From Dehalococcoidia bacterium (lineage in GTDB: Bacteria > Chloroflexota > Dehalococcoidia > Bin125), in contig JAJDYG010000009.1 of assembly GCA_022822855.1 (NCBI GenBank), positions 32,460 through 96,459 of the forward strand: DNA of 64,000 nucleotides. Direction: 5' to 3'. Below the pieces are notes generated by a model. The model was given only the letters and a program-made list of their open reading frames with translations, was not told where the DNA came from and made no database searches. Within the stretch, counting starts at the first letter, position 1. Every line of letters starts with the position of its first letter. Made by a program: the position numbers and the translations under genes. This document shows positions 2,100 through 60,440 of this stretch, one piece after another.

Positions 2100-2108
2100 T
2101 CAACTAGT

Positions 2109-2160
2109 CGCCCGGCTTGCGACTCGGCTCACTACCTGGGAGCCGCGCAGCCGGGCGGCG
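2109..2160 (+). terminator. Intercistronic nested stem-loop after SBP gene 1
   Basis: GCCCGGCT...GACTCGGCTC-actacctgg-GAGCCG...AGCCGGGC, followed by a GTTTGCGCCGTGGTTTTGGG T-rich tract. Confidence 0.4.
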
Positions 2161-2204
2161 TCGTTTGCGCCGTGGTTTTGGGTTGGCGTGTGAGGTGTCA
2201 AATG

Positions 2205-2221
2205 GCTTACACTCTGCCAAT
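2205..2221 (+). promoter_or_regulatory. Conserved motif upstream of SBP gene (CTTACACTCTGCCAATC)
   Basis: Copy 2 of the SBP-upstream motif. Confidence 0.4.
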
Positions 2222-2253
2222 CCAAGGCTGAGCGAGACAATGGGAGGCCCAGG

Positions 2254-4269: not shown

Positions 4270-4324
4270 GGGCGGACGACTCACGACGTCTGGACGGCCA
4301 GAAGCGAACTAGTCGGGAGCAGCG

Positions 4325-5950
4325 ATGCAGCGATATCTCATCCAACGCCTAATCCTCGTGATTCCGACGCTTTGGTTGGTGATCTCGCTGCTCTTCTTGG
4401 CTCTGCGGGCACTGCCGGGAGACTTCGTCACCCGTAAGCTCTCCAACCTTGAGAACCAGGGCGCTGAGCAGCGCGAGTCGGAAATCGTCGGCTTCATAGA
4501 AGTCGAGGACACGACACACCGGGTGATCTCGGGCGACACCCTGGAGGACATCGCAACGGAGAACGCCACGACCGTCTCCGCGTTGCTCGCTCAGAACCCG
4601 GATCTCGACACATCGGGCGAGCTCAGGCCCGGCACCCGGATCACCGTCATTCCTGGCCAGTTGCTGTCGCAGATCGCCATCGGAGAGAAAATTTCACTGC
4701 CTGAAGAAGTGGATACCGGCGTGCAGTTGCTGCTCGACCGCAACCCGGACGTTGACTTTCCTCAGTATCAGGGCCAGCCTTACGCGGAAGCAGGGACGAT
4801 TCTGATCCTGCGGAACACTCTGACGCTCGATGAACTGGCGCACGTCAACCGGATCGATGCCAGCGACATCCTCGCGGTCAATCCCACCGGCAGCGCTAGC
4901 AATCCCGACGGGAACTTATCGGCCGACACGCAATTGATCCCAACAGGACTTGTGGTTGCCGAAGAGGGCGACACGCTTGAAGGGCTCGCCGCGGCATTCG
5001 GTCGCGACCTCGAAGCGATGACCGCGGCTAACCGTGGAGTAGACCCGGCCGAACCCTTAGAAGCGGGGACAGACATTCTCATCCCCTCGGACCGGATCGT
5101 GACTCCGACTACCAAAATCACCGAGGCAAACATTCGGCATCGACTGGGCATCGACAAGCCGCTAGGCACTCAGTACATCGATTTCCTCTGGGAGACTGTG
5201 CGGTTGAAGTTCCGGCCGTCCTTCCAGACCCAGGAAGGGTCGCTGGACATCTTCCTGCGCGCCTTGCCGCGGACGTTGCACCTGAATGTCTACGCGTTGA
5301 TCGTGGCCCTGGTGATCGCCCTACCGGTCGGCATTCTGTCCGCGATGCGGCAGGACCGGCCTCTGGACTATGCCTTGCGCGGGTTCGCCATCCTCGCGCT
5401 GGCCGCGCCTTCCTTCTGGATCGCAACGATGATGATCTTTGTCGTCACACCGGGAGGCATTTCAGAAGCCGGGATCTGGTCGATTCCGCTGACATCGGAA
5501 GAGGCGAGATCGGTCTTCTCCTCCTTCACCGGAGCTCTGGCCCTGTACTCGATTCCTGCCGTCGCTGGCGGCATCGCAGCGGGAGCCGGCTTGATGCGGA
5601 TCACCCGGTCCGAACTGCTTGAGGTGCTGCGACAGGACTACGTCCGTACCGCATGGTCCAAGGGGCTCCGCGAACGAACAGTGATTCGCCGTCACGCGAT
5701 GCGCAACGCCCTGGTCAACGTGATGAGCGTCCTCGGCCTGCAGATTGCAGCGCTGGTCGGCGGCAACATCATCCTCGAGCTGCTGTTCAACATCCCAGGC
5801 ATCGGACTGTTGCTCATTCAGCGCATCAATCAGGCCGACCTGCCGGTCGTGCAGACGATGGTGTTCTTCTTCGCCCTGTTCATCATCATCGTGAACATCA
5901 TCATCGACATCTCGTACGCGGTGATTGACCCGCGTATTCGATACACCTAA
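4325..5950 (+). CDS. ABC transporter permease, DppB/OppB-like, with ~230-aa periplasmic insertion containing LysM-like repeats
   Basis: N-terminal TM helix plus the PGD motif typical of DppB. The conserved LGIDKPLGTQYIDFLW segment and C-terminal TM core (ALRNALVNV..IDISYAVIDPRIRY) are present. Between TM1 and the LGIDKP block lie three LysM-like units, e.g. HRVISGDTLEDIATENATTVSALLAQNPDLDTSGELRPGTRITVIPG. Confidence 0.85.
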   Translation: MQRYLIQRLILVIPTLWLVISLLFLALRALPGDFVTRKLSNLENQGAEQRESEIVGFIEVEDTTHRVISGDTLEDIATENATTVSALLAQNPDLDTSGELRPGTRITVIPGQLLSQIAIGEKISLPEEVDTGVQLLLDRNPDVDFPQYQGQPYAEAGTILILRNTLTLDELAHVNRIDASDILAVNPTGSASNPDGNLSADTQLIPTGLVVAEEGDTLEGLAAAFGRDLEAMTAANRGVDPAEPLEAGTDILIPSDRIVTPTTKITEANIRHRLGIDKPLGTQYIDFLWETVRLKFRPSFQTQEGSLDIFLRALPRTLHLNVYALIVALVIALPVGILSAMRQDRPLDYALRGFAILALAAPSFWIATMMIFVVTPGGISEAGIWSIPLTSEEARSVFSSFTGALALYSIPAVAGGIAAGAGLMRITRSELLEVLRQDYVRTAWSKGLRERTVIRRHAMRNALVNVMSVLGLQIAALVGGNIILELLFNIPGIGLLLIQRINQADLPVVQTMVFFFALFIIIVNIIIDISYAVIDPRIRYT

Positions 5951-5973
5951 TCGGTTGGCCCGGGGGTAGCACC

Positions 5974-7215
5974 ATGAGTGACGAACGGCAATCGAATTCT
6001 GCGCAGCTGGAAGAGTTCGCGCAGGCCCAGGGACTTCGCGTCGAGGAACGAAGCACGTTCCAACTGGTCTCGAGAGCGCTCGTCTCATTCTTCAAAACCA
6101 AGCCGCTCGGCGCTGCCGGTCTGATGCTCGTGGTGGTCTGGTCAATCATCGCCGTGGGCACGGTTGGTTCAGGCGGCGGCTGGCTCGGCATCGGTCGCTA
6201 CGACTCGCAGGATGTCTTCAAGGTCGCCAACGCCAGCTTTGCCGACGACAAGATCGCAAACGAACTTGACGGCAAGCCGGCAGACATTTCTGACGGCGAA
6301 CTGCGCGAGCTGCTCCTTAACCCCGCCGTCTACGGCGATCTGGCCAGGGATTCGGGCGTTCTCGATGACATGCTGGAGTATGTCGAAGGGCGAATCGCCG
6401 ACGGCACCTTGCTCACTCATCTACAGGAGATAGACCCAGCGCAAATCGAGATCGCCAACGGCGTCATCGCGGATGTCGATGATCTGCTCGCCACCGGTAC
6501 CAACACTCCGTTGACGACGGCTTCGTTGCAGGGTCCGTCGCCCAAACACTGGTTCGGCACCGACCGCGCCGGGCATGACCTCTTCTCCCGCGTCACCGAA
6601 GGCGCGCGTCTGTCGCTCTACATCGGCTTCTTCGCCACCTTGATAGGTGTTGTCGCCGGAACCGCGATCGGGCTGATCTCTGGCGGCTTGGGCGGCAACA
6701 TCGACCTAGCGATCAACCGCCTGATGGACGCGCTGCTCTCCTTCCCGCCGATTGTGCTGTTGCTGCTCCTTCGTTCAGTCACTGAACCTTCGGCGCTCTG
6801 GGTGACATTGGCTCTCTCGGTGCTGGCGGTCGGACCTGTCCAGCGCATCGTGCGAGGCGCGGTAATCGCACTGCGGGAAATGCCGTTCGTCGAGGCGGCG
6901 CGCACCCTCGGCGCGACCAACGCGCGGATCATGTTGCTGCATATTCTGCCCAACATCGTCGCGCCGCTGATCGTGATCTTCTCGATTACGATCGGCGCCT
7001 TCATCCTCGCCGAGGCAGCGCTCAGCTTCCTCGGCCTGGGCACGCTGGACGTCTCCTGGGGCAAGATGATTGCCGACGGCCGCCAGTTCATCGTCCAGTC
7101 GCCGTGGACGTCACTGTTCGCCGGCCTCGCTCTGACCAGCTTGGTCTTCGGCTTCAACGTCCTCGGTGACGCCTTGCGGGACGTCTTTGATCCCCGTCTC
7201 CGTGGCAGTCGCTGA
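5974..7215 (+). CDS. ABC transporter permease, DppC/OppC-like, with extended N-terminal periplasmic region
   Basis: HWFGTDRAGHDLFSRV motif, EAA-like loop and C-terminal GDALRDVFDPRLRG. About 110 aa longer than typical DppC. Confidence 0.85.
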   Translation: MSDERQSNSAQLEEFAQAQGLRVEERSTFQLVSRALVSFFKTKPLGAAGLMLVVVWSIIAVGTVGSGGGWLGIGRYDSQDVFKVANASFADDKIANELDGKPADISDGELRELLLNPAVYGDLARDSGVLDDMLEYVEGRIADGTLLTHLQEIDPAQIEIANGVIADVDDLLATGTNTPLTTASLQGPSPKHWFGTDRAGHDLFSRVTEGARLSLYIGFFATLIGVVAGTAIGLISGGLGGNIDLAINRLMDALLSFPPIVLLLLLRSVTEPSALWVTLALSVLAVGPVQRIVRGAVIALREMPFVEAARTLGATNARIMLLHILPNIVAPLIVIFSITIGAFILAEAALSFLGLGTLDVSWGKMIADGRQFIVQSPWTSLFAGLALTSLVFGFNVLGDALRDVFDPRLRGSR

Positions 7216-7306
7216 CCAGTCCAGTCCTGAAGCTGAACTGTCCAACCTCTCAGCCGGTCCGGCGGGAGCCTGGCACGTGTCTTTGGCGCGAACTGGGCGT
7301 CGTCAA

Positions 7307-7323
7307 GTAGACTGTGCCAACTG
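7307..7323 (+). promoter_or_regulatory. Conserved motif upstream of SBP gene (GTAGACTGTGCCAACTG)
   Basis: Copy 3 of the SBP-upstream motif, more diverged. It is followed by the hairpin CAGCACG-N9-CGTGCTG. Confidence 0.35.
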
Positions 7324-7363
7324 TCAGCACGCGCCTTAGACGTGCTGAGAAGGAGCGAGATTC

Positions 7364-9376
7364 ATGCCCGAGCGGAACTACTGGCAACGCATTCGACGCA
7401 ACAAGATGAGTCGGCGCGCGCTCTTGCGCGCATCGGGAAGGGCAGGAGTCGGTGCCGCCGGTTTGGCCCTCGTCGGCTGTGGCGGCGACGATGACGACGA
7501 CCAACAGTCCGTTGCTCAGACAGCCGATCAGCAGCAACAGCAGCAGCAGGCCATGCAACAGCAGGCCGATCAGCAGCAGCAACAGCAGGCGATGCAGCAG
7601 CAATCGCAGGAACAGCAAGCTGAGCAGGCTGCACAGCAGGCCGACCAGGAAGAGCAGGAGACGGCAGCCCAGGCCCAACAACAGCAACAGCAACAGGCCG
7701 CCAGCGTCGACCGCTACGGCGGAACACTGCGTTTCTCGACCCCTGCTGCGACCCACGACTTCTTCGACCCACATCGTGGCGTGTTCGGCCCCACCCAGTA
7801 CTGGATGGGGTTCTACATGAACTACATGATCCGCTGGGCCACGAAGGAAGGCGGGGTCATGGAGGAGGACATCACCTCCTTGCCCGAGCTGCCCGATGCC
7901 GAGACCTACATCTTCAGCGTCGACCGAGGCGCGCGCTACTGGGATCAGTACCCCACAGAGGGTGGTCGCGAGGTCACCGCTTCCGACATTCAGCTCAACT
8001 TCGAACGGCAGATCGAGGCGCTCGACGCGGAGGGCAACCCTGACGCCCGCTTCCGCGGCCAGGATGCATTCAAGAAGACCGCCTCGATGGAAGTGCCCGA
8101 CGATGGCACTTTCATCGCCCGCACCGATGGCCCCGATGCGACCTACCTCGGCGGCACCATTCTGCGTCCCTTCTCTTGGATTACCTCACCCGAGGGCATC
8201 CAGGAGTTCGGCACTCGCTGGCGCGACGAGACCGCCAACGTCGAGCTCTCGTCGGGTACCGGGCCGTACATTCCGCAGACCTACGACCCGGACATTGGCA
8301 TCTACCTTGAGCGCAACCCCAACTACTGGAAGAACGCGTCGGATGGCAGCCAGCTGCCGTTCATGGACGCCGTCGAGTTCGTCAACCTGACCGATGCGAC
8401 CGCCGTTGACGCCGCCTATCGCGGCAAGGGCATCGACATCGGTGGATTTCCGCTGTCTGCGGTACAGGTGGAGGAGTTGACCGGTGACTTCCCGGACCAT
8501 GAGGTCCGTGAGGGCGCGTTCGGATTCACCGTCGTCACGGTGATGGGCACGTACCAGCCCGGCTGGGAAGGCTCGGACGGTCTGGGCAATCCTTACCTCG
8601 ACCGGCGCTTCGCGTACGCGATGAACGTGGCGGTCGACCGCGACCTGCTGATCGATGCGGTCTACCTGGGAGCGGCCAAGCCGTCCGCGACACACTTCTG
8701 CCCCTGGTTCTCGACCTACTGGACGATTCCGCCGGAGGAGCTGCGCACGATTCCGGGCTTCCGCCTGAACCGCGACGAGGACATCCAGTTGTGCCGTGAG
8801 TTGATTGCTGCGTCCGGGTTTGACACCGACCGGACAGTCACGATCTACATCCCGGACCTTTGGGAGCAGACCTACCCGGGTATCACCGAGACGACCCGCA
8901 ACATGTACGCCGAGGCGACCGGCATCAACGTCGAGCTGGACATCCAGCCGTACACGGTGATGCAGGACCGCTACGACAACCAGACCTTCCCCGGCCGAGC
9001 GCCGACCTGGACCAACCCTCCGGCCGACCTCGACCCAACCGCGCAGTTCACGCTGTCGCTCAAGGTCGGTGGTGCCTCGAACCTGACCCAGTACAACTAC
9101 GCTCCAACAGAGGAGATCGTTGACGAGATGGCGGTCACGCTGGACACCGAACAGCGCCGCGACATGGGACTCAAGGTGCAGCGAATCGGCCTCGGCGTCG
9201 ATGAAGAGCACGGCCTTGACGGCATCTTCGGCTGGTTCGGTGTGATGAACGGTATCGCGCCGACAATCTGGTGGCCGTACGTCAACCGCCCGGACCACAC
9301 CTGGCAGTTCGCGCACGACTCCCACAACTTCGACACGGCCTGGGTCGACACCCAACACGCCGAGTACCCGGCATAA
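7364..9376 (+). CDS. ABC transporter substrate-binding protein, family 5 (paralog 3)
   Basis: Tat motif plus lipobox, Q-rich linker, and paralogous blocks shared with the other SBPs. Confidence 0.85.
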   Translation: MPERNYWQRIRRNKMSRRALLRASGRAGVGAAGLALVGCGGDDDDDQQSVAQTADQQQQQQQAMQQQADQQQQQQAMQQQSQEQQAEQAAQQADQEEQETAAQAQQQQQQQAASVDRYGGTLRFSTPAATHDFFDPHRGVFGPTQYWMGFYMNYMIRWATKEGGVMEEDITSLPELPDAETYIFSVDRGARYWDQYPTEGGREVTASDIQLNFERQIEALDAEGNPDARFRGQDAFKKTASMEVPDDGTFIARTDGPDATYLGGTILRPFSWITSPEGIQEFGTRWRDETANVELSSGTGPYIPQTYDPDIGIYLERNPNYWKNASDGSQLPFMDAVEFVNLTDATAVDAAYRGKGIDIGGFPLSAVQVEELTGDFPDHEVREGAFGFTVVTVMGTYQPGWEGSDGLGNPYLDRRFAYAMNVAVDRDLLIDAVYLGAAKPSATHFCPWFSTYWTIPPEELRTIPGFRLNRDEDIQLCRELIAASGFDTDRTVTIYIPDLWEQTYPGITETTRNMYAEATGINVELDIQPYTVMQDRYDNQTFPGRAPTWTNPPADLDPTAQFTLSLKVGGASNLTQYNYAPTEEIVDEMAVTLDTEQRRDMGLKVQRIGLGVDEEHGLDGIFGWFGVMNGIAPTIWWPYVNRPDHTWQFAHDSHNFDTAWVDTQHAEYPA

Positions 9377-9383
9377 CAACCGG

Positions 9384-9412
9384 GTCTGTCAGGACGAACC
9401 GCGCTCGGCTCC
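9384..9412 (+). terminator. Intercistronic stem-loop between SBP gene 3 and permease gene
   Basis: GGCTCCCCTGCC-tgca-TGGCAAGGGAGCC, a near-perfect palindrome just after the stop at 9376. Confidence 0.4.
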
Positions 9413-9516
9413 CCTGCCTGCATGGCAAGGGAGCCGAAGCAGCCGGCGAGCGACATCGCCGAGCGAGGCCGGATTTCCCCAGCAGCATCCTGCTCAAGCA
9501 GGAGTGACGGGATCAC

Positions 9517-10998
9517 ATGCAGAAGTACCTGATCCGACGATTCCTGCTTGTGATCCCCACCTTGTGGCTGGTTATCTCGATCCTCTTCCTCGTGCTGAAT
9601 GCGTTGCCGGGCGACTACGTCACAATCAAGCTGTCCAACTTGGAAGCATCAGGCGCGACCAAGATTGAAGCTGAGATCGTCGGCGAGCTGGAGGTCGAAC
9701 GCACCCTGCATCGCGTCGTCGGTGGCGACACTGTCGCCTCAGTTGCGGCGCAGTATGGGGCTGCCGTTGACGACATCGTTGCCGTCAACCCCAATCTTGA
9801 TGCCGGATCTGAGCTTCGGCCCGGCTCGACCATCGTGGTGATCGATGGCCAACTCCTCTCGTCTATCGCCCGGACCTCGAGGCTTTCCCTGCCCGAGGAG
9901 AATGAAGCGGGCATCGCGCTGCTTCAGGAGCGCAACCCCGACGTTGAATTCGGCACCTTCGCCGGTCAGCCGTTCGCGCCCGCCGGCGTCACTCTGACCC
10001 TGCGCGAGAGCACGACCTTACGTGAACTCGCCGAAGTCAACCGCGTCTCCCCCGACGACTACATGAACGTCAACTTGGAGGGCACTCCCGCCAATGAAGA
10101 TGGCTCCTTGACCGTCGATACGCCGCTCTTACCCGGCGACATCTACATCTCGCCGACCCGAGAGATCACCGAGGCGAGCATCAAACATCAGCTTGGCATC
10201 GACAAGCCGCTGGGCCAGCAGTACATCGAGTACCTGTGGGACACGATCCGGTTCCAGTTCCGACCGTCCTTCCAGACCAACGAACCGTCGATGGACATCT
10301 TCCTGCGCTCGTTGCCACGGACGCTGCACCTGAATGCTTACGCGTTGATCGTGGCAGTCACCGTGGCGTTGCCGGTTGGCATCCTCTCGGCGATGCGGCA
10401 GGACCAGGCGCTCGATTACGGACTGCGAGGATTCGCCATCCTGGCCTTGGCCGCGCCTTCCTTCTGGATCGCGACCATGATGATCTTTGTGGTCTCGCCG
10501 GGTGGCATCTTCGAAGGAGGGATTTGGTCGATCCCGCTCACCGACGAGGAGGCGCGGAGCATCTTTACCTCGGTTGATGGGTTCTTTGCGCTCTACACGA
10601 TTCCGGCTGTAGCGGGCGGCATAGCCGCCGGCGCCGGACTAATGCGCATCACTCGCTCCGAGTTGCTCGAGGTCCTGCGTCAGGACTACGTGCGCACGGC
10701 TTGGTCAAAGGGCTTGCGCGAGCGAGCCGTGATCCGCCGGCACGCGCTTCGCAACGCGCTCGTGCCGGTGCTCAGCGTGTTCGGACTGCAGTTGGCGGCC
10801 CTGGTCGGCGGCAACATCATCCTCGAAGTGCTGTTCAACATCCCCGGCGTCGGACTCATGCTGCTGCAGCGGCTCTACCAGGCAGACATCCCAGTGATCC
10901 AGACGGCGGTGTTCTTCCTCGCGCTGTTTGTGATCATCGTCAACATCGTGATCGACATCAGCTACGCGCTGATCGATCCGCGCATCCGCTACACCTAG
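9517..10998 (+). CDS. ABC transporter permease, DppB/OppB-like, with LysM-like periplasmic insertion (paralog)
   Basis: Collinear with 4325-5950. Carries the LysM-like unit HRVVGGDTVASVAAQYGAAVDDIVAVNPNLDAGSELRPGSTIVVIDG and the LGIDKPLGQQYIEYLW block. Confidence 0.85.
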   Translation: MQKYLIRRFLLVIPTLWLVISILFLVLNALPGDYVTIKLSNLEASGATKIEAEIVGELEVERTLHRVVGGDTVASVAAQYGAAVDDIVAVNPNLDAGSELRPGSTIVVIDGQLLSSIARTSRLSLPEENEAGIALLQERNPDVEFGTFAGQPFAPAGVTLTLRESTTLRELAEVNRVSPDDYMNVNLEGTPANEDGSLTVDTPLLPGDIYISPTREITEASIKHQLGIDKPLGQQYIEYLWDTIRFQFRPSFQTNEPSMDIFLRSLPRTLHLNAYALIVAVTVALPVGILSAMRQDQALDYGLRGFAILALAAPSFWIATMMIFVVSPGGIFEGGIWSIPLTDEEARSIFTSVDGFFALYTIPAVAGGIAAGAGLMRITRSELLEVLRQDYVRTAWSKGLRERAVIRRHALRNALVPVLSVFGLQLAALVGGNIILEVLFNIPGVGLMLLQRLYQADIPVIQTAVFFLALFVIIVNIVIDISYALIDPRIRYT

Positions 10999-11024
10999 AA
11001 GTTCGCCAGGTAACCGAGCAGACC

Positions 11025-12257
11025 ATGAGCCAGCAATCCGGCGCCACCGATCAACTCGACGATTTTGCCGCGACTGAGGGTCTGCGCATCGATCAGGCGA
11101 CCGGCCTGCGGCGCGCCCTGGTCTCCTTCCGCGACTTCATGGTGACCAAGCGCCTCGGCGCTGCCGGCGTGATAATCGTCGTGCTCTGGAGCGTGATCGC
11201 CGTTGGTACCGTCGGTGACGGCGGAGGCTGGTTGGGAATCGGGCGCTACGACTCGCGCAGCGTGTTCGAAATCCCTTCCGTCAAGTACGCCGATGACAAG
11301 CTCGCCAACGCGCTTGATGGCCTCTCCGCCGACACCTCGGACGCTGAGCTCCGCGCCATCGTCAGCGAACCCGAGATTTTCGGCGAGCCCGCTGCTGACG
11401 TCAACGTTCAGGCCGAAATGGTCGACTATGCGCTGCAGCAGATCGAGGCCGGACTGCTGCTGGAGACCCTGATCGAAGAGGAACAGATCGAGATCCAGGA
11501 CGGCACCATCGTCGACGTCGACAGCTTGCTCGCCGCTGGAACTGACAATCCACTGATTACCGCCTCGCTGCTGGGACCTTCGGGTAAACACTGGTTTGGA
11601 ACCGATCGTGCCGGACACGATCTGTTCTCGCGGGTCACCGAGGGCGCAAGGCTATCGCTGTACATCGGATTCTTCGCCACGCTGATCGGCGTAATCGCCG
11701 GCACAGCGACCGGTCTAATCTCAGGCTCATTTGGAGGTTCGGTCGATCTGGTCATCAACCGCATTCTTGACGCCGTTCAGAGCTTCCCGCCAATCGCATT
11801 CCTGCTTCTGATCGCTTCGATCACCGATCCCTCAGCGCTGTGGGTGACGCTGTCGCTCTCGGTGTTGGGGATTGCGCCGACTAATCGGATTGTCCGAGGG
11901 AGCGTGATCCAGATTCGCGAGATGCCGTACGTCGAGGCAGCTCGTACGATCGGCGCAAACTCGACACGAGTGATGGGATTCCACATCCTGCCCAATATTT
12001 TCGCGCCCCTGATCGTCATTTTCTCGATCACGATCGGTGCATTCATCCTCGCCGAAGCAGCGCTTAGCTTCCTTGGCTTGGGCACGCTCGATGTGTCGTG
12101 GGGGAAGATGATTGCCGACGGACGCCAGTTCATCGTCTATTCGCCCTGGACATCGCTCTGGGCCGGTCTCGCCTTGACCTCGCTCGTCTTCGGCTTCAAC
12201 GTTCTCGGTGACGCCCTGCGGGATGTCCTCGACCCGCGACTTCGTGGTAGCCGCTAG
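11025..12257 (+). CDS. ABC transporter permease, DppC/OppC-like (paralog)
   Basis: Collinear with 5974-7215. The start is placed at the ATG of MSQQSG (11025) rather than the ORF-track start at 10701, which overlaps the upstream permease. Confidence 0.8.
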   Translation: MSQQSGATDQLDDFAATEGLRIDQATGLRRALVSFRDFMVTKRLGAAGVIIVVLWSVIAVGTVGDGGGWLGIGRYDSRSVFEIPSVKYADDKLANALDGLSADTSDAELRAIVSEPEIFGEPAADVNVQAEMVDYALQQIEAGLLLETLIEEEQIEIQDGTIVDVDSLLAAGTDNPLITASLLGPSGKHWFGTDRAGHDLFSRVTEGARLSLYIGFFATLIGVIAGTATGLISGSFGGSVDLVINRILDAVQSFPPIAFLLLIASITDPSALWVTLSLSVLGIAPTNRIVRGSVIQIREMPYVEAARTIGANSTRVMGFHILPNIFAPLIVIFSITIGAFILAEAALSFLGLGTLDVSWGKMIADGRQFIVYSPWTSLWAGLALTSLVFGFNVLGDALRDVLDPRLRGSR

Positions 12258-17453: not shown

Positions 17454-20132
17454 GTGCAGGATTTCTCCATGACCAACGACGAACATCTCCTTGACGGCGT
17501 GCGCGTGATCGAAGTCGGGGACGAGGTCTCCGCTTACGCCGGCAAGCTGTTTGCTGGCCTCGGCGCAGAAGTGATCAAGGTTGAGCCCCCCGATGGATGC
17601 TCTACTCGGAGCATCGGACCGTTTTACCAGGATGACCCAGGTCTCGAGCGGTCGCTGTTCTGGTGGCACTACAGCATCGGCAAACGATCGTTGACGCTCA
17701 ATCTGAACGCCGATGATGGTCGCTCGACGTTGCTGAACCTGCTTGGCACGGCTGACCTGTTCCTCGACGCTCGACCGAAGTCCGACCTTGAGCAACAGGG
17801 ACCCGACGAGGAGGCCGTCCGCGAGGCGAACCCGGACATCGTGATTGCCCGGATGTCTCCGTTTGGCGATTCGGGGCCGTGGGCTGACTATCGGGGTTCG
17901 GATCTGGTCCACCTGGCGCTGGGTGGGCCGATGATGAACTGCGGCTATGACCCTCGGCCCGACGGCACGTACGACACTCCCCCTATCGCGCCGCAGATGT
18001 GGCAGGCGTACCACATCGCCGGGGAGCTGACCGTGATGAATGCGATTGGGGCGCTGATTGATCGGGGGCGTTCCGGCCGAGCGCAGACATTGCACACCGC
18101 GGTGCATGACGCGGTTGCCAAGAACACCGAGCTTGATCTGATGAGTTGGGTCTATCGGCGGGCGCGGTTCTTCCGGCAGACCTGCCGCCATGCGGCTGAG
18201 GTGGTCTCGCCGTTGCCGATGATTGGTCCGACCAAGGATGGGCGCTGGGTAATGGCGCTGCCGCGCGGACGGTCTCAGTCGTTGATCGACTTCCTGGACA
18301 GCTACGACATGGCGGCCGATTTGAAGGACAAAGCGCCGGAGTCGGGCGGCGCGAACACGCGCTCCAGAGGCGAGACCGCCGCCCACCTGCAGGAGGTGTC
18401 GCAGCGGTTGATCCGCAAGTTCCGGTTCGAAGACGTGCCCTGGCGCGAAGCGCAGGACCTGGGTCACCTCTGGGCGCCGTTGCGCAAACCGCATGAGAAC
18501 GCGCTCGATCCTCACTGGTGGGAGCGGGGGAGCTTCGCCAGGGTGGCGCATCCAGAACACGAGGTTGATGGCAAACCGGCAGAGTTCATCTACACGTCGA
18601 GCAAGTGGGTTTCGTCGGAGACGTCGTGGCAGGTCGGGCCGCGCGCCCCGCTGCTCGGAGAGCACAACGAGGAGATCCTCGGCGAGCTGGACGCCGGCTC
18701 CTTGCGTGTGGGGCAGGCTTCTGGCATCTCTCTCCGCGGAGCGGGCGGAGAACAGAACGGGAATGGCCGAGCCGATATCCCGGAAGGGGAGTGCTCGGTG
18801 TCCAGGTGGGGGACGCCGTTTCCGCTCGAGGGGGTTCGCATTCTCGACTTCACCTGGTGGCTCGCCTCGGGCGGCGCGCCGCGATTCCTGTCGGCGCTGG
18901 GCGCGGAGGACATCAAGGTCGAGTGGCATCAGAACATGGACCTGCGGGTCGGCATGGCTCAGTTTCCGCAAGGCGGCAAGGGAGCTCGTGAAGTCCTGGG
19001 GATCAACGATGGACCGTTGCCGCCCGACAACTCGACGATCAACCGCTCAGGGCAGTTCAACGACTTCCACGCAGGACATCGCGGACTCTCACTCAATCTG
19101 CGCGACCCCCGCGGGCTGGAGATTGCCAAGCAACTGGTGTCAATTTCGGACATCGTCGCCGAGGGCTTTTCGCCCGGCGTGATGGAGCGCTGGGGCCTGG
19201 GCTATGAGGTGATGAAGGAGATCAAGCCGGACATCATCTACCTGTCGCAATCGGGGATGGGCCAGGTCGGCGTCTACGGGCGATACCGCACCGTCGGTCC
19301 GATCGCCGCGTCCTTCGGCGCGATCTCCGAGTTATCGGGCCTGCCGGAGCCATATGCTCCGGCCGGTTGGGGGTACAGCTACCTCGACTGGTTCGGCGCG
19401 TACAACCTCGCCAACGCGATGATGGCGGCACTGTACTACCGCGACCGGACCGGCAAGGGTCAGTGGATCGACTCCTCACAGGTTGACGCGGGCATCTATC
19501 TGAACGGCACGTCGGTCCTCGAGTGGTCGGCCAACGGGACGATCTGGCAGCGCTACGGCAACCGCTCGCCGTACAAGCCGGCCGCCCCGCATGGCGCGTT
19601 CCGATGCCGCGACGACATCGAGTCCAGCGACCGCTGGGTCGCGTTCGGCTGCTTCGACGAGTCGGACTGGCAGTCGCTGCGGCGGGTGATGGGCGACGCG
19701 GAGTGGGCGGCATCGGACCGCTTCGCCACGTTGGCGGATCGGCTGGCTAACCAGGACGAATTGGACGAGCGGATTTCGGAGTGGACGCGTCAACATGACC
19801 GCTGGGACTTGATGACGAGACTGCAGGAGGCCGGAGTCGCCGCCGGCGTTTGCCAGGACGCCCAGGACCGGTTCGAGGGCGACCCGCAGCTCGCCCACCT
19901 CAACTGGCTGACCGAGGTCGAACATTCCGAGATGGGTCCCTGGCCGACCAAGGAGGTGCCGGTCAAGTGGAGCGAGACTCCGCCGTTCATGGGCGGGCCG
20001 ATCGACCGGGGCGCGCCGCGTTACGGCGAGGACAACCACTATGTGCTCGGCGAGCTGCTCGGCCTGAGCTCGTCGGAGATCTCCCGGCTGGCGGATGACG
20101 GGGTGATCGCCGAGGGTCTCGCGAAGGTCTGA
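17454..20132 (+). CDS. Family III CoA-transferase (CaiB/BaiF-like), tandem-duplicated fused protein
   Basis: Two CoA-transferase III-like halves. The N-terminal half has VRVIEVGDEVSAYAGKLFAGLGAEVIKVEPP. The second half (from ~aa 460) has VRILDFTWWLASGGAPRFLSALGAEDIKVEW. Confidence 0.8.
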   Translation: MQDFSMTNDEHLLDGVRVIEVGDEVSAYAGKLFAGLGAEVIKVEPPDGCSTRSIGPFYQDDPGLERSLFWWHYSIGKRSLTLNLNADDGRSTLLNLLGTADLFLDARPKSDLEQQGPDEEAVREANPDIVIARMSPFGDSGPWADYRGSDLVHLALGGPMMNCGYDPRPDGTYDTPPIAPQMWQAYHIAGELTVMNAIGALIDRGRSGRAQTLHTAVHDAVAKNTELDLMSWVYRRARFFRQTCRHAAEVVSPLPMIGPTKDGRWVMALPRGRSQSLIDFLDSYDMAADLKDKAPESGGANTRSRGETAAHLQEVSQRLIRKFRFEDVPWREAQDLGHLWAPLRKPHENALDPHWWERGSFARVAHPEHEVDGKPAEFIYTSSKWVSSETSWQVGPRAPLLGEHNEEILGELDAGSLRVGQASGISLRGAGGEQNGNGRADIPEGECSVSRWGTPFPLEGVRILDFTWWLASGGAPRFLSALGAEDIKVEWHQNMDLRVGMAQFPQGGKGAREVLGINDGPLPPDNSTINRSGQFNDFHAGHRGLSLNLRDPRGLEIAKQLVSISDIVAEGFSPGVMERWGLGYEVMKEIKPDIIYLSQSGMGQVGVYGRYRTVGPIAASFGAISELSGLPEPYAPAGWGYSYLDWFGAYNLANAMMAALYYRDRTGKGQWIDSSQVDAGIYLNGTSVLEWSANGTIWQRYGNRSPYKPAAPHGAFRCRDDIESSDRWVAFGCFDESDWQSLRRVMGDAEWAASDRFATLADRLANQDELDERISEWTRQHDRWDLMTRLQEAGVAAGVCQDAQDRFEGDPQLAHLNWLTEVEHSEMGPWPTKEVPVKWSETPPFMGGPIDRGAPRYGEDNHYVLGELLGLSSSEISRLADDGVIAEGLAKV

Positions 20133-20562: not shown

Positions 20563-20749
20563 GAGGATGGCCTCCCTGTTCAGAACGGACTGATGTTCTT
20601 ATCCTACGCAGTTTGGGAGGCGATAGGGGAACGGCGGGAGTCTGATCCGGGGTGTGTAGCGTCGAAGACGGGGGCGAAGGGAGAGCCGGGCGGGTCCCCC
20701 CGATCAGGTCGGGGGCAGGCTCCGAGTGAATCGGGGACTGGAAGACTCG

Positions 20750-21910
20750 TTAGAGGGACGCGTAGAGGGCGTCGATGAGGACGGTGCAGCGGGGGTCGTG
20801 GGCGACTTCGGTGCCCATCTGGTTCATGACGTAGCCGAAGCCGATGTTGGCGTCGAGGTCGGCGTAGCCGAGGGAGCCTCCGGCGCCAGAGTGGCCGAAG
20901 GCTCGGGGATTGGGGCCGTAGGGCGTGGATTCTCCGGTGAGGGCCCAGCCGAGTGCGAAGCGGGTGTTGATGCCGATGCAGGCGTCGGGGCCGTTGGTCT
21001 GTTCCTCGATGCCGTTCTCGATGGTTTCCGGACTGAGGACATGGACGCCGTCGATCTGGCCGCCGTTGGCGGCGGCGCCGTAGATGCGGGCCAGGGCGCG
21101 GGCGGTCGCGTGTCCGTTGGCGGCGGGGATCTCGGCGGCCCGCCAGTCGCGTCGCGACGCCATCGCCGGCCCGCCGGGGTTGAAGACCGGCGGATTGACG
21201 ACGGCGACGATGCCAACGCTGTCGGGGTCGCCGAACAGGTCGCTGGTGGGCGGGAACTCGGCGGCGATCTGGGGTTCGATCACGGTCGAGATGCGGGCGT
21301 CGAATTCAGGACCGGTGCCGATGTGGGCGTCGAGGCCTAGGGGCGCGGCGAACTCCTCGCGGAAGTACGTACCCAGCGAGCGGCCGTCGATCCGGCGGAC
21401 CACCTCGCCGACCAGCCAGCCGAAGGTCATGGCGTGGTAGCCGTGCTTCTCGCCGGGTGTCCACCAGGGCTCCTGCTCGGCGAGGGCCGAGGTCATGGTT
21501 TCCCAGTTGAACATGTCCTCGGCGACGAGCTCGCGCTTGACGGCGGCCATGCCTGCCTTGTGGCAGAGCAGCCAGCGGACCGGGATGTCCTGTTTGCCGG
21601 CGGCGGCAAACTCGGGCCAGTACTCGGCGACTGGGGCGTCGATATCGAGCCTGCCCTGTTCGACCAGCCGGTGAGCGCAGAACGCTGTGAGCCCCTTGGT
21701 CGAGGAGTAGACGTTGACGAGCGTGTTGCGATCCCATTCGCGCTCACGGTCGGGCGCGTACCAGCCGCCCCAGAGGTCGACGACGGGCTCTCCGTTGAGG
21801 TAGATGGCGACGGCTGCGCCGACTTCGTTGCGCTCGTCGAAGTTGCTCTCGAACGCTCGTCTGACGGCGTCGAAGCGCGGGTCGTTCCATCCGTGGATTG
21901 GAGTGGTCAT
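20750..21910 (-). CDS. Serine hydrolase, beta-lactamase/esterase (class C-like) family
   Basis: S-x-x-K motif (YSSTKGL). Start placed at MTTPIHGW by alignment with paralog 22084-23244. The upstream part of the ORF-track frame is encoded by the hairpin repeats. Confidence 0.8.
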   Translation of the reverse strand: MTTPIHGWNDPRFDAVRRAFESNFDERNEVGAAVAIYLNGEPVVDLWGGWYAPDREREWDRNTLVNVYSSTKGLTAFCAHRLVEQGRLDIDAPVAEYWPEFAAAGKQDIPVRWLLCHKAGMAAVKRELVAEDMFNWETMTSALAEQEPWWTPGEKHGYHAMTFGWLVGEVVRRIDGRSLGTYFREEFAAPLGLDAHIGTGPEFDARISTVIEPQIAAEFPPTSDLFGDPDSVGIVAVVNPPVFNPGGPAMASRRDWRAAEIPAANGHATARALARIYGAAANGGQIDGVHVLSPETIENGIEEQTNGPDACIGINTRFALGWALTGESTPYGPNPRAFGHSGAGGSLGYADLDANIGFGYVMNQMGTEVAHDPRCTVLIDALYASL

Positions 21911-21930
21911 GGTTGGTCCTTGTGGCTGGG

Positions 21931-22075
21931 AGCCCCCCTCTGCCTTCGGCATCTCCCCCCAGAGGGGGGAGAGAAGGATGGGAGTCAGCATCTCCCCAGA
22001 AGGGGAGAGAGTGAGAGAGGAAGCGGCGTCTCCTTCAGATGGGGAGAGTGGGTAGGAGTCGGCAGCTCCCTATGC
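21931..22075. repeat. Three tandem GC-rich palindromic hairpin units (CTCCCC..GGGGAG type)
   Basis: Units gcatctccccccagagggggagag, gcatctccccagaaggggagagag and gcgtctccttcagatggggagag lie between two co-directional paralogous genes. Confidence 0.75.
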
Positions 22076-22083
22076 GCTAGAAG

Positions 22084-23244
22084 CTAGAGCGAGGCGTAGA
22101 CGGCGTCGATGAGGCCGTTGACTCGAGGGTCTCCACTGAGGTTGTTCTGCATCTGGTTCATGGTGTAGCCGAAGCCGATGTTGGCGTCGATGTCTCCGTA
22201 GCCGAGGGATCCGCCGGCGCCGGGATGGCCGAAGGCTCGGGGGTTGGGTCCGAGGGGCATGAACTCGCCGGTGAGCATGAATCCGAGGCCGAAGCGGGTG
22301 GGGATCATCAGGCAGGTGTCGGGACCCTTGGACTGTTCGGCGATGGCGTTCTCGAGGGTGTCGGGGTTGATCACGTGGATGCCGTCGATCTCGCCTCCGT
22401 TGGCCGCGCCTCCGTAGAGGCGGGCCAGCGAGCGCGCTGTGGCGTGTCCGTTGGCTGCGGGGATTTCCGCGCCGCGCCAGCCTCGGCTGCCGGTGATGTT
22501 GTCTTCGTCGGGTCCGGCGATGGGTGGGTTGGAGAATGCTGCCGCGCCGACGCTGTCCTCGCCCATCATTTCAACGAGGTTGGGGGCATCGGGATCGACC
22601 GGCGCGTTGATCAGGGTCGAGATGCGGCCGTCGAACTCGGGTCCGGTGCCGATGTGCGCGTCCAGTCCGAGGGGCGCGGCGAACTCATCCCACCAGTAGC
22701 GGCCGATGGAGCGTCCGTCGATGCGGCGGACGACCTCGCCGACGAGCCAGCCGTAGGTCAGGGCGTGGTAGCCGTGCTGTTCACCCGGCGTCCACCAGGG
22801 CTCCTGCTCGGCCAGTGCCTCGCACATGGTGTCCCAGTTGTAGAGGTCTTCCATGACCAACGGTCGGCGGACGGCGGCCATGCCGGCGCGGTGCGACATC
22901 AACCAGCGGACGGGCATGTCGCCCTTGCCAGCCTGGGCGAACTCGGGCCAGTATTCGGAGACCGGCGCATCGAAGTCGAGCCGGCCTTCCTCGGCGAGCC
23001 GGTGGGCGCAGAAGGCGGCCAGGCCCTTGGTCGTGGAGAAGACGTTGACGAGCGTGTTGCGGTCCCACTCGCGCTCATGGTCGGCGTCGTACCAGCCGCC
23101 CCAGAGGTCGACGACGGGCTCGCCGTTGAGGTAGACGGAGACCGCTGCGCCGACTTCTCCGTGCTCGGCAAAGTTTGTCGCGAAGGCTTCGCGGACCGCG
23201 TCGAATCGTGGCTCGGTCCATCCGCCGATTGGCGCGTCGGTCAT
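22084..23244 (-). CDS. Serine hydrolase, beta-lactamase/esterase family (paralog)
   Basis: FSTTKGL S-x-x-K motif. Collinear with 20750-21910. Confidence 0.8.
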   Translation of the reverse strand: MTDAPIGGWTEPRFDAVREAFATNFAEHGEVGAAVSVYLNGEPVVDLWGGWYDADHEREWDRNTLVNVFSTTKGLAAFCAHRLAEEGRLDFDAPVSEYWPEFAQAGKGDMPVRWLMSHRAGMAAVRRPLVMEDLYNWDTMCEALAEQEPWWTPGEQHGYHALTYGWLVGEVVRRIDGRSIGRYWWDEFAAPLGLDAHIGTGPEFDGRISTLINAPVDPDAPNLVEMMGEDSVGAAAFSNPPIAGPDEDNITGSRGWRGAEIPAANGHATARSLARLYGGAANGGEIDGIHVINPDTLENAIAEQSKGPDTCLMIPTRFGLGFMLTGEFMPLGPNPRAFGHPGAGGSLGYGDIDANIGFGYTMNQMQNNLSGDPRVNGLIDAVYASL

Positions 23245-24329: not shown

Positions 24330-24446
24330 TACGGCACTCCCTCGCCAAGGGGCGGCAACGGCTCCAACCCCTGATTCATTCAGGTGGCTGCCTGAGGACC
24401 AAGCGGGTCCCCGAACGAGTCGGGGACTGGGAGAGGGAGCGCGCCT

Positions 24447-30670: not shown

Positions 30671-32882
30671 TCGCCATGTGCGCCATGTCCCTGTCGAGCT
30701 GGCTGCCGCTGCGTTCATCGTGGTTGCTCTCGTCCTCGTCGCGCTGTCAGGGACTCCAGGTAGCGACCCAACGTCGGCCCAGGACCAAGATGAAGCGGTC
30801 ACGGCGCGGGTCGTGGCCCGAGATGCGACGGGCAACCGAATTGAGTTCGGGATCCGCACTGGGGAAAGGACATACCTTCCCGACGAGCGCTTCATGTCTC
30901 GAAACAGGAGGAGCGTGCGCTGGGCGCAGAGTTCTGAGGTCGTCATCGCGGACGGGCGGGCGCTACATGTGACTGCGCGGCGACTCACGAGCGGCAGCTT
31001 CGAGTTTGGGATTCGCGTCGACGGTGTGACAGAGCGGCTCCTGCCCCAGTCACGTTTCGTATCGGCCGACCGGGACCTCGACGAGTGGCTCGACAGCAGC
31101 CCCGTCACACTGCCACATCCGGAGATACTGCGGACCGTCACGCCTGTCTCGCCGGAATTGCTCGGGCTTGGGAGCAGTCATAGCTGTGCCGTGACGGGCG
31201 ATGGAAGCATCGAGTGCTGGGGTTCCCACGAGTACGGTCAGAATGACCCGCCAGACGGGCAGTTCCTGACGATCAGCGCCGATGCAGTCCAGAGTTGCGC
31301 TTTGAATGTCGGCGGCGGCATCGTCTGCTGGGGCGACAACAGCCTGGGTCAACTCGATGCGCCGGTGGGACGCTATGTTGCGCTCGGCATAGGCGGTGTT
31401 CATGGCTGCGCACTGGATGAGGACGGGGCCATCGATTGCTGGGGACTCGACTTCAATGGGCAGGCAACATCGCCGGAGGGCAGGTTTGTCGCCCTGAGCT
31501 CGGGCACCGGCCACAACTGCGCCATCACCACATCCGGCGAAGTGGAATGCTGGGGCGACAATCTGTGGGGTCAGTCTGACGCTCCCGAGGGGCGCTTCGT
31601 TGCTGTTGACGCGGGAGGCGCCCATAGCTGCGCTCAGGATGCAGCAGGCGCGATTCAATGCTGGGGCTACGGTGGCGATGGTCAGTTGGGCATTCCACCC
31701 GGCCGATACACCAGTTTCGTCGCCGGAGCCTGGCATACCTGTGCCATTGACGGCGACGGTCATCTCGGCTGTTGGGGTTGGGACGGTCACAACCAGAGCA
31801 GTCCGCCGCCGGGATCCTACGCTGCAGTTGGCGCAGGCGGTGCACACACCTGCGGCGTTGCGACCGACGGCAGCGTCCGCTGTTGGGGCTCAAACGGCGC
31901 CGGTCAGACCGAGTCGCCGAGTGGAGAGTTCAGCGAGGTTGTGGCAGGTTTCTTACACACCTGTGCTCTCGACGAGGAGGGCGCCGCCTCATGTTGGGGC
32001 ACAAACGGAGATGGTCAATCGGACGCACCGGAAGGGTCGTTCATCTCAATCGGTCCCGGCCTGTCACATACCTGCGCGGTCGACCAGGACAATGAGTTGG
32101 TCTGTTGGGGCTGGGATGGCTACGGCCAGACCGATGCGCCTGTCAGCGAGCTACCCGAGGATGAATCGCGGTTGGTTCCGTTCAGACTCGGGGACAGCGA
32201 CTGCGAACAGGACGAGTTCGGCGCCTTCAGCAGAGATACCTGTTGGGGCAGCGACGAGGATTCTCCGCTCAGTCCACCGAGGGTAAGTCACTACCAGACG
32301 GTCGGCAGCGGAGGTTCATTCTCTTGCGCCCTCACGCTCAACAACGAGATCGACTGCTGGGGCACCGGGCGAAGCGGGCAACTGGAGTCGCCTTCTGGCC
32401 AGTGGCGGAGGCTGAGCGTCGGCTTTGCGCATGCCTGCGCACTGGACGAAGCTGGCGAGATCACCTGCTGGGGGGCGAACTCATACGGACAGTCTGATGC
32501 GCCGGAAGGGCCATTCGTGTCCATCTCGGCGGGAATCGTGCATACCTGCGCACTTGATGCCGCAGGTCAGGTCACCTGCTGGGGCGACGACGAATACGGA
32601 CAACTCGAGATCACGCCAGGGTCCTACGAAGTCGTGTCGTGCGGCGGGGAACACACTTGCGCGATGACCGCCTCGGGCGAGATCTCCTGCTGGGGACGCG
32701 ACGTCTGGGGTCAGGCGAGCCCGCCTGAAGGCGTGTACACCGCGCTGTCGGTGGGCGCCGAGCACAGTTGCGCCCTGAACGAGGAGGGCGAGATCGTCTG
32801 CTGGGGCATCAACAGGTACGGGAACACCGACGTCCCGGAAGCGCTCCAGCAGCCCGGCGCCGTCTCGGTTGCGAGCGAATAG
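30663..32882 (+). CDS. Membrane-anchored RCC1-repeat (beta-propeller) protein with N-terminal novel tandem repeat module
   Basis: N-terminal TM (AAAFIVVALVLVAL), then two ~55-aa repeats (ARxxxGxxEFGIR...LP..RF). About 15 RCC1-like blades follow, each with H-x-C-A ... C-W-G-x-(N/D)-x-x-G-Q. Start at the ATG overlapping the upstream stop. Confidence 0.8.
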   Translation: MRSRHVRHVPVELAAAAFIVVALVLVALSGTPGSDPTSAQDQDEAVTARVVARDATGNRIEFGIRTGERTYLPDERFMSRNRRSVRWAQSSEVVIADGRALHVTARRLTSGSFEFGIRVDGVTERLLPQSRFVSADRDLDEWLDSSPVTLPHPEILRTVTPVSPELLGLGSSHSCAVTGDGSIECWGSHEYGQNDPPDGQFLTISADAVQSCALNVGGGIVCWGDNSLGQLDAPVGRYVALGIGGVHGCALDEDGAIDCWGLDFNGQATSPEGRFVALSSGTGHNCAITTSGEVECWGDNLWGQSDAPEGRFVAVDAGGAHSCAQDAAGAIQCWGYGGDGQLGIPPGRYTSFVAGAWHTCAIDGDGHLGCWGWDGHNQSSPPPGSYAAVGAGGAHTCGVATDGSVRCWGSNGAGQTESPSGEFSEVVAGFLHTCALDEEGAASCWGTNGDGQSDAPEGSFISIGPGLSHTCAVDQDNELVCWGWDGYGQTDAPVSELPEDESRLVPFRLGDSDCEQDEFGAFSRDTCWGSDEDSPLSPPRVSHYQTVGSGGSFSCALTLNNEIDCWGTGRSGQLESPSGQWRRLSVGFAHACALDEAGEITCWGANSYGQSDAPEGPFVSISAGIVHTCALDAAGQVTCWGDDEYGQLEITPGSYEVVSCGGEHTCAMTASGEISCWGRDVWGQASPPEGVYTALSVGAEHSCALNEEGEIVCWGINRYGNTDVPEALQQPGAVSVASE

Positions 32883-47502: not shown

Positions 47503-47603
47503 CTCAGAGCCCAGAGTAGACTTGCGGCGGTACGTCCTCAGTCGCACCGCGACAGTTCCCCCTGTTGAGAGGGGGGCTGCAGTTGCTGGAAAGGAACTCT
47601 CCA

Positions 47604-59699: not shown

Positions 59700-59715
59700 C
59701 CGCCGAACAAATCCC

Positions 59716-59790
59716 CACTCCCTTTCTCCCCCCGCGAAGCGGGGGGAGATGCCGAAGGCAGAGGGGGGTCCCCGCTTGCCCTACCCTCCT
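59716..59790. repeat. GC-rich palindromic hairpin element; inverted copy of the element at 21931-22075
   Basis: tctccccccgcgaagcggggggaga hairpin. The reverse complement of 59741-59773 shares the 28-nt core cccccctctgccttcggcatctcccccc with 21934-21961. Confidence 0.75.
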
Positions 59791-60229
59791 CCCGAGTCAC
59801 TTCTCCCTCCGCGGGGCTGCGCGCAAATCGCCTCAGCACACCATCGCGCCCACGTAGGGGGCGACCCTCGTGGTCGCCCTGTCCGCTGAAAACGAAGGAC
59901 GAGGCCAACCCTCCAATGCCCCGCACTTACCCTCCGATGCCCCGTGCTTGCCTGCCCCTGGCTTGAACAGGGGACACGGGGCCCAGACCTCAGCCGTTGC
60001 AATCGCGAAAGCCTCGGCCTCACTTCGGCCTCAGCCACGAAAGTCCCATCTGCAAGCCAAACAACGCTCCACCTCTAAGAGAACCTATGTACGGTTAGAA
60101 TCAGCCAGCACCAAATCCAACCACCTGAAGGGGAGGCACTATGCCCATGCCGACGCAACATCAGCCTCGCGGTTTCCCCCTGCCCACCAACCGTTCTCCT
60201 CACACAGATCCGAACAAGCCCGAACACGC

Positions 60230-60440
60230 GGAACACTCCCCTCTGCCCCGTTCAGCTCACCCTGTCGCTGTCCAGCAAACCTTGGACCAACCGGAACATG
60301 GCTGAACACAGCTGAACCAGGCTGAACGATCCTGACCACCCTGAACGCACGATCCTCAGCAATACACTGGAGATCGTCCCATTGATCCGCCAAACACAGA
60401 TTTCACCTGAACACCTGAACACCTGAACCGCGAACAACTG
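60230..60440 (+). repeat. Cluster of CTGAAC(A/G) hexamer repeats in G-depleted ilvN-ilvC spacer
   Basis: About 10 copies, e.g. ggctgaacacagctgaaccaggctgaacgatcctgaccaccctgaacgc and cacctgaacacctgaacacctgaacc. Confidence 0.6.

Follow-up and report, generated by a model that had tools for sequence, protein, structure and literature searches.

Two intergenic spacers in the 64,000-nt stretch of Dehalococcoidia DNA analysed here (the window), one between tandem beta-lactamase paralogs (locus A) and the other downstream of ilvN (locus B), share an identical word of 28 nt, which raises the question of what kind of element these spacers carry. The window contains exactly two copies of this 28-mer, CCCCCCTCTGCCTTCGGCATCTCCCCCC, at 21933-21960 (+) and 59741-59768 (-), neither with a mismatch; 100 dinucleotide-preserving shuffles contained no match. 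The more general pattern TCTCCCC-N3-12-GGGGAGA is found three times in the window against an expectation of 0.01. The identical core described in an earlier note on this DNA is thus borne out (two exact copies with none expected), although the position given there for locus A, 21934-21961, was one base off. The opposite orientation ascribed to the two copies is true of the window strands only; relative to the flanking genes, both copies have the same orientation and are sense.

On the gene-sense strand, the full unit consists, in order, of a pyrimidine arm (Y arm, TCTCCCCCC), a loop, a purine arm (R arm, GGGGGGAGA), a single T, a mini-hairpin designated P3 (GCC-GAA-GGC), and a tail (AGAGGGGGG) that is the mirror image of the purine arm. 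It follows from this order that the 28-mer corresponds to purine arm, P3, and mirrored tail rather than to the pair of hairpin arms for which it had been taken. The three tandem hairpins previously proposed at locus A were confirmed at 21952-21972, 21991-22008, and 22029-22047 (the third containing G-T pairs), and the loop at locus B, GCGAAGC, does differ as claimed. What had been missed is the third tract mirroring the purine arm. This tract is the defining feature of the family and places it with the intrastrand-triplex repeats designated BoxC/PIT/TMECO. Table 1 shows the location of each copy and its parts.

Table 1. Copies of the repeat in the window and their component tracts.
Feature	Position	Strand	Sequence and context
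Locus A spacer	21911-22083 (173 nt)		Between two co-directional minus-strand Beta-lactamase (Pfam) paralogs, 20750-21910 and 22084-23244
Locus A, full unit 1	21933-21972	-	TCTCCCCCCTCTGGGGGGAGATGCCGAAGGCAGAGGGGGG (5' to 3'); its end lies 22 nt before the start codon (ATG, 21910) of the downstream paralog
Unit 1, Y arm	21972-21964	-	TCTCCCCCC
Unit 1, loop	21963-21961	-	TCT
Unit 1, R arm	21960-21952	-	GGGGGGAGA, then T at 21951
Unit 1, mini-hairpin P3	21950-21942	-	GCC-GAA-GGC
Unit 1, mirrored tail	21941-21933	-	AGAGGGGGG
Locus A, unit 2	21991-22020	+	Short-loop class II motif TCTCCCC-AGAA-GGGGAGA-GAGTG-AGAGAGG, one mismatch
Locus A, unit 3	22029-22047		Degenerate hairpin TCTCCTT-CAGA-TGGGGAGA with G-T pairs
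Locus B, full unit	59725-59768	+	Begins 26 nt beyond the stop codon (59699) of ilvN
Locus B, Y arm	59725-59733	+	
Locus B, loop	59734-59740	+	GCGAAGC; two extra base pairs and a GAA triloop
Locus B, R arm	59741-59749	+	Then T at 59750
Locus B, P3	59751-59759	+	
Locus B, mirrored tail	59760-59768	+	
Pyrimidine tract 5' of locus B unit	59713-59724	+	CCCCACTCCCTT; can pair with the tail to give the P1 three-way junction
Decayed subfamily B/C unit	47533-47576	-	CCCCCCT-CTCAAC-AGGGGGAA-CT-GTCGCGGTGCGAC-T-GAGGACG, in a 101-nt divergent spacer
Decayed in-frame copy	18716-18753	-	Within the linker between the two CoA-transferase III domains of an 892-aa ORF

Read on the minus strand, unit 2 of locus A is truncated after GGGGAGATGC, inside P3, and unit 3 (...GGAGACGCCG...) retains only the start of the core and also stops inside P3. 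The element at locus B is double-faced: the pyrimidine tract CCCCACTCCCTT can pair with the tail and is also complementary to GAGTGGG on the minus strand, which forms a second third tract, though an imperfect one. The looser relative noted earlier at 47553-47580 is a genuine but decayed copy that is best read on the minus strand; its P3 is GTCGC-GGT-GCGAC, its CT and T linkers are typical of another subfamily, and its plan is that of subfamily B/C elsewhere.

The in-frame copy lies in an ORF (17454-20132) in which a linker at ~18700-18790 connects the two CoA-transferase family III domains. Orthologous loci that are 83% identical to the window (L099, at 1671-1759, and L045) contain an intact repeat at the matching linker site. 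It looks as though the repeat was exonised as a domain linker or two tandem genes were fused through it. The longest ORF of the downstream beta-lactamase paralog (20750-21991) runs 81 nt beyond the likely ATG and through unit 1, and gene callers could over-extend this paralog into the repeat; exact-protein look-ups for both paralogs, with three start variants, found none on record. The window also contains nine copies of a repeat with a period of 111 nt inside a gene (31179-32815; RCC1-like units, ...CTGCTGGGG...), and large diverged paralogous blocks (75-12000 versus 40600-42600) that are 70-80% identical, direct and inverted, with Gln-rich CAG tracts.

An ITxF-like scan for triplex motifs returned four in the whole window, all of which fall at loci A and B, on both strands; 30 dinucleotide shuffles gave none, so that motifs of class II are over-represented. 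The class II tract order, in which pyrimidine, purine, and reverse-Hoogsteen purine tracts follow one another on one strand, is found at 21972-21933 (-) and 59725-59768 (+). By sequence, both full units provide nine of nine triads of the C-G*G / T-A*A type, with stems in the range of 6-15 nt and at most one mismatch. The loops are less conventional. Published limits are 1-6 nt in ITxF and 0-10 nt in the work of Hoyne et al. (PMC4666352); loop 2 of the window units measures 10 nt, which falls outside the former and within the latter, and reaches 12-16 nt in many relatives, while loop 1 has 3 nt in the full unit of locus A and 7 nt in that of locus B. Because its loop 2 exceeds 1-6 nt, the family would not be listed by the published ITxF search. 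Across 706 kb of fetched Chloroflexota loci, the scan found 212 triplex-type motifs, compared with two in 340 kb of unrelated control contigs, one of them in the nearest relative (L128). Loop 2 of the 212 motifs peaks at 10, 14, 12, and 16 nt, the lengths of the hairpin forms; only 14 motifs contain the 3-nt loop 2 (TTA, CTA, CCG) of the TMECO types.

Comparison of copies supports both hairpins. When the 13 nt between the tracts were taken unconstrained, 19 of 21 distinct sequences formed perfect or wobble 5-bp hairpins closed by a triloop, with stems GTCAC/GTGAC, GTCCC/GGGAC, GTCGC/GCGAC, CCCGC/GCGGG, GCCGC/GCGGC, GCCCC/GGGGC, and GGCGC/GCGCC. In the formal count for P3, 100% of cells were paired and both sides had changed in three of the five pairs; the covariation score of 0.553 (0.165 in shuffles) was equalled in none of 500 shuffles. 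The first hairpin keeps its base, with an apex that can be as small as a 3-nt loop or extended by ~25 nt. Both hairpins are therefore supported by compensatory variation. The asymmetry of P2 mismatches (23 G-T versus 4 A-C) was set aside as evidence, since the search pattern fixed the purine arm and thereby biased the count.

The third tract co-varies with the other two. Anchoring on P3 only, we found four subfamilies, in which purine arm and tail are GGGGGGAGA and AGAGGGGGG (A), GGGGGAG and GAGGGGG (B), GGGGGAAG and GAAGGGGG (C), and GGGGGGAGG and GGAGGGGGG (D). Each has a complementary pyrimidine arm, and each tail mirrors its purine arm with no mismatches versus 2-4 if the tail is read as a direct repeat, a comparison that amounts to about three independent subfamily events among copies collected with a pattern fixing part of the tracts. 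The lengths of the G runs in arm and tail correlate (rho of 0.51 overall and 0.79 in low-GC genomes). A mirror repeat cannot arise by duplication or inversion, and a symmetric protein dimer would not see it as two equal sites. The arrangement appears suited to contacts of strand with strand, the principle on which a purine-motif triple helix is built.

The repeats BoxC/PIT/TMECO of E. coli (Bachellier in the 1990s; Hoyne et al. 2000; Holder et al. 2015) contain a class II intrastrand triplex motif, CCCTCNCCC-N3-6-GGGNGAGGG-N3-GGGNGAGGG, are always intergenic, and form inverted pairs of type A and type B (PMC4666352). TMECO folds into a stable triplex in vitro as judged by CD and NMR, in vivo DMS footprinting gave no sign of a stable triplex, and the repeat is strongly associated with spacers that vary between strains (PMC4666352). 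The window family resembles TMECO in its succession of pyrimidine tract, loop, purine tract, loop, and mirrored purine tract on one strand, in its 9-nt stems with predicted C-G*G and T-A*A triads, and in being G/C-rich, intergenic, and multi-copy, with inverted pairs of two types and strain-variable spacers. It differs in its tracts (G6AGA/AGAG6 rather than GGGNGAGGG), in a loop 2 that is a stem-loop of 10-16 nt (GCC-GAA-GGC, GTCAC-GGA-GTGAC, and others) rather than 3 nt, in a loop 1 that is often extended into a longer hairpin, and in its hosts, which are Chloroflexota and several other phyla rather than Proteobacteria.

The canonical TMECO/BoxC consensus has no match in the window. Eleven matches to the canonical TMECO pattern were found in related Chloroflexota loci (~1 Mb), and these copies share genomes and spacers with the window family. 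One of them, compared with E. coli genomes, is 92% identical over 37 nt and matches a median of 16 places per genome. The canonical motif, CCCTCTCCC-N-GGGAGAGGG-TTA/CTA/CCG-GGGTGAGGG, occurs in L103 (4228-4270), L030, L036, L056, L067, L070, L085, L108, and L120. Because the window family fails the TMECO consensus and the ITxF loop limit, its second loop being a stem-loop, we regard it as a sibling of TMECO and not a member. Purine arm and tail also form a spaced mirror repeat, as in the homopurine/homopyrimidine mirror repeats of H-DNA. What sets the unit apart from H-DNA is that the complementary pyrimidine arm is on that strand too, so that one strand can supply all three strands of a triplex; H-DNA needs only supercoiled duplex DNA.

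How widely is the family distributed? A scan with the 20-nt core GGAGAYGCCGAAGGCRGAGG, using one genome per species, found it in at least 119 genomic stretches, mostly from sponge-associated Chloroflexota/Dehalococcoidia. About 85 of the stretches listed come from metagenome-assembled genomes (MAGs) of this kind with many copies per chromosome, and OZ242281.1 alone contains at least 14 loci. The core is therefore not limited to two loci, as the earlier note allowed it might be, and its view of a dispersed, extragenic, hairpin-forming family holds. Genuine copies, with the hairpin context kept, are also found in Bacteroidota, including the isolates Aequorivita nionensis, Fulvivirga marina, and Salegentibacter tibetensis, and in Cyanobacteria, Dialister, Christensenellaceae, Cloacimonas, Chlorobiota, Abditibacteriales, and one gammaproteobacterium. 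Identical 20-mers are shared across Chloroflexota, Bacteroidota, Cyanobacteria, and Bacillota. Five of the genome stretches listed are chance matches in coding sequence that lack the hairpins, as are three of five matches in viral contigs; the other two viral matches are real, with a much longer first hairpin. We conclude that the family is real, abundant in the sponge-associated Chloroflexota from which the window comes, and present in other phyla. A literature search for the core in either strand or alphabet found no paper.

Some copies are embedded in larger structures. In Dialister and Paludibacteraceae MAGs (L016, L061, L063, L084, L095), the unit lies inside a longer block, AATGATAGGTCCGTAGGAC-unit-GTGTATTTCC; this block is common to two phyla of gut bacteria and possibly belongs to a larger mobile element or RNA that they share. 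Loci of the OZ242281.1 type (such as L085, L049, L076, and L110) contain a composite repeat of ~230 nt with ends GGAGACC...GGTCTCC, in which one unit with GCCGAAGGC as P3 is joined to an inverted unit with GTCACGGAGTGAC as P3, analogous to the inverted pairs of type A and type B TMECO in E. coli. An association with CRISPR in Fulvivirga (L118) was rejected, the repeat-like word being present only once, and a presumed resemblance to the 5' end of tRNA-Ser (GGAGAGAUGCCGGAG) was dropped as unsupported.

Copies are gained and lost in the intergenic spacers of close relatives. At locus B, strain L001 is 98.4% identical to the window up to the ilvN stop and again from 60437; the intervening sequence (738 nt in the window versus 411 nt in L001) cannot be aligned, and in L001 it contains other CT/GA hairpins. 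The ilvN protein is identical in GCA_022823685.1, where the flanking DNA is 98.4% identical. At locus A, the raw sequences, read in place of a MAFFT alignment that misplaced the gap, show the same two paralogs 27 nt apart in relative L129, with no repeat between them. L054 is empty where L075 is filled, and one orthologous spacer contains TMECO in L103, the window family in L105, and nothing in L121. In tandem clusters (L025, L105, L062), the upstream copies are truncated inside P3, as they are in the window. In the 3' half of the ilvN-ilvC spacer (59700-60512), both strains retain arrays of CCTGAA / CTGAAC / CCGAAC words, possibly a regulatory leader of ilvC.

We consider it somewhat better than an even bet (roughly 55%) that the window copies represent a dispersed non-coding DNA repeat with a class II (purine-motif) intrastrand triplex architecture, in which a hairpin forms the second turn and copies turn over because of the structure. 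A hairpin-looped variant of the intrastrand-triplex repeats is the description best supported by the sequences; folding into a triplex in vivo, the mode of spread, and the cellular role are matters that we infer. In the mechanism we envisage, the purine-rich strand would fold into a hairpin whenever the DNA becomes transiently single-stranded during replication, repair, or transcription. The tail could then lie in the major groove to complete nine triads of the C-G*G / T-A*A type, a fold demonstrated in vitro for the E. coli relatives. Such a folded obstacle would be expected to stall polymerases, and stalling may lead to slippage, template switching, deletion, and local sequence turnover, through which copies would be both spread and eroded. 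No dedicated gene-regulatory role would be necessary. The exact 20-mers common to several phyla are not explained by instability alone.

The unit could instead act at the level of RNA, as two hairpins or a junction of P1, P2, and P3 at the 3' ends of genes that terminates transcription without a U tract or, like REPs, stabilises the upstream mRNA as a barrier to 3' exonucleases. We view this as a distinctly less probable, though respectable, alternative. The two intact copies in the window have the sense orientation with respect to the genes that flank them. By crude gene calls, most copies are intergenic and gene 3' ends are favoured (20 in convergent versus 9 in divergent spacers); the bias in co-directional gene pairs is weak (24 sense versus 13 antisense copies, not significant), and antisense and promoter-side copies are known, such as the one at 47533-47576. 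All three non-Watson-Crick cells of P3 are G-U in the sense orientation and none is A-C. In Chloroflexota copies, the tail can pair with the 5' pyrimidine tract through G-U/G-T wobbles to form P1, with at least five contiguous pairs in 65% of copies versus 13% of controls. At locus B, the P1 three-way junction is also the minimum-free-energy fold of the DNA (z = -4.3) with a tool that models Watson-Crick and wobble pairs only. Because neither low-GC genomes nor subfamilies C and D show this pairing, we rejected P1 as the sole reason for the tail across the family and retain it as an alternative fold in Chloroflexota. A plain two-hairpin RNA leaves unexplained why the tail mirrors the purine arm, and purine-motif triplexes do not form in RNA (PMC4666352).

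Terminator function was considered separately. A search for U-tract terminators found no terminator-like site at loci A and B, where the hairpins are followed by AGAUGCC... and CUCCC/UCCCC, and earlier work that tested the PIT/TMECO relatives in E. coli found neither terminator nor promoter activity (PMC4666352). GC-rich hairpins without U tracts, of the type GGGTCCCCGA...TCGGGGACCC, are present at 20696-20715 and 24409-24425, 20-35 nt after gene ends; lacking both core and tail, they are probably ordinary terminator-like hairpins of the lineage. Since these other U-less hairpins follow genes in the window, there is room for a lineage-specific terminator role. Among known RNAs, the nearest is the Whalefall-1 motif (Rfam RF01762; Weinberg et al. 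2010), a non-coding RNA whose function is not known and which comes from whale-fall metagenomes only (PMC2864571). Whalefall-1 shares with the window family a hairpin of the CUCUCC/GGAGAG type and a 3' tail rich in purines (AGGGUGAGGAC), as well as a second internal segment; the window family does not match the model's middle hairpin. Searched against Rfam at the gathering threshold, the whole window gave no match, and E-value scans returned sub-threshold Whalefall-1 and chance microRNA matches only. Whalefall-1 is the top Rfam match both for unit 2 (21988-22022), at 21.9 bits, and for a copy from Chitinophagales, at 21.5 bits; these scores, and a second in the window of 12.8 bits, are far under the gathering threshold of 37.

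Less probable still is a non-autonomous transposable element, similar to REP/REPIN or MITE, whose hairpins are recognised by a single-stranded DNA transposase encoded elsewhere and acting in trans. Dispersed copies whose presence differs between relatives, inverted pairs such as the ~230-nt composite of some Dehalococcoidia, and exact 20-mers across phyla together with copies on two viral contigs, suggesting horizontal spread, are all consistent with such an element. So is the finding that, in the Chloroflexota loci L004-L122, the strand of the units that is rich in purines coincides with the strand that is locally C>G 84 times versus 44, in counts that ignore shared ancestry and gene orientation; this skew hints at a replication-strand bias and is reminiscent of strand-specific single-stranded DNA transposition. 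Like REP, BIME, and REPIN sequences, the family is a short extragenic palindromic repeat in many copies, occurring singly, in tandem, or as inverted doublets at gene ends. Its second hairpin and mirrored third tract are lacking in REPs, and its cores are identical across phyla whereas REPs are lineage-specific.

REPs are described as having a tetranucleotide tag, GTAG or CGTC, at one of the two ends of the palindrome (PMC3733652); such a tag lies within 10 nt of either end in at most 6 of 172 units. The earlier label of REP palindrome and terminator is thus apt for a hairpin repeat and misplaced for a simple REP palindrome or a U-tract terminator. As for the proposal of a MITE-like mobile element, the unit has neither terminal inverted repeats nor a target-site duplication, and ends resembling such repeats occur only in the ~230-nt composite of other genomes. 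Wherever empty and filled sites were compared, they differed by replacement of the whole spacer rather than by clean insertion, and we saw no clean junctions or target duplications. REPs typically flank the gene of a RAYT (Y1 transposase); tblastn with Y1/RAYT queries (IS200 TnpA, YafM) found no related ORF at E<0.3 in the window and ~1 Mb of related loci, and the plasmid and phage collections searched contained no match to the repeat. Genes between paired units in L006, L075, and L085, considered as candidate transposases, are instead housekeeping genes (metF-like, SDR, pyruvate kinase, ABC transporter). Overall, the earlier interpretation is partly supported.

Chance likeness of low-complexity G/C runs or an assembly artefact, for which one could cite the low complexity of the tracts and the chance coding-sequence matches in some genomes and viral contigs, is refuted by the expectation of zero in shuffles, by an architecture conserved with covariation, and by copies in isolate genomes (Aequorivita, Fulvivirga, Salegentibacter) and independent assemblies.

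Returning to the intrastrand-triplex reading, it is tempting to speculate that the three tracts co-vary to keep a nine-triad triplex with a mini-hairpin turn and that selection maintains this fold in a cosmopolitan element, with a trans-acting factor or a copying mechanism recognising the folded single strand. We regard this bolder proposal as doubtful at present, with odds clearly against it.

Intrastrand triplex repeats of the BoxC/PIT/TMECO type have been known for decades and have no assigned function. To our knowledge, evidence for the third strand has so far been biophysical and confined to E. coli-type sequences. In the window family, the tracts are asymmetric, so that mirror and direct arrangements can be distinguished, and in several subfamilies the three tracts have changed in concert. 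The hairpin in loop 2 would escape existing triplex finders, and this suggests that published censuses under-count such elements. The repeat also bears on annotation: it explains spurious small ORFs, odd 5' extensions of genes (20750-21991), and a repeat-derived protein linker. The family is a marker of spacers undergoing turnover between strains with 98% identity. Owing to its asymmetric tracts, its co-changing subfamilies, its abundance, and its unstable spacers, the family lends itself, as a natural data set, to the question of whether selection acts on triplex potential. If covariation of the triads is indeed kept by selection, it would constitute comparative evidence that intrastrand triplexes are maintained by selection in bacteria.
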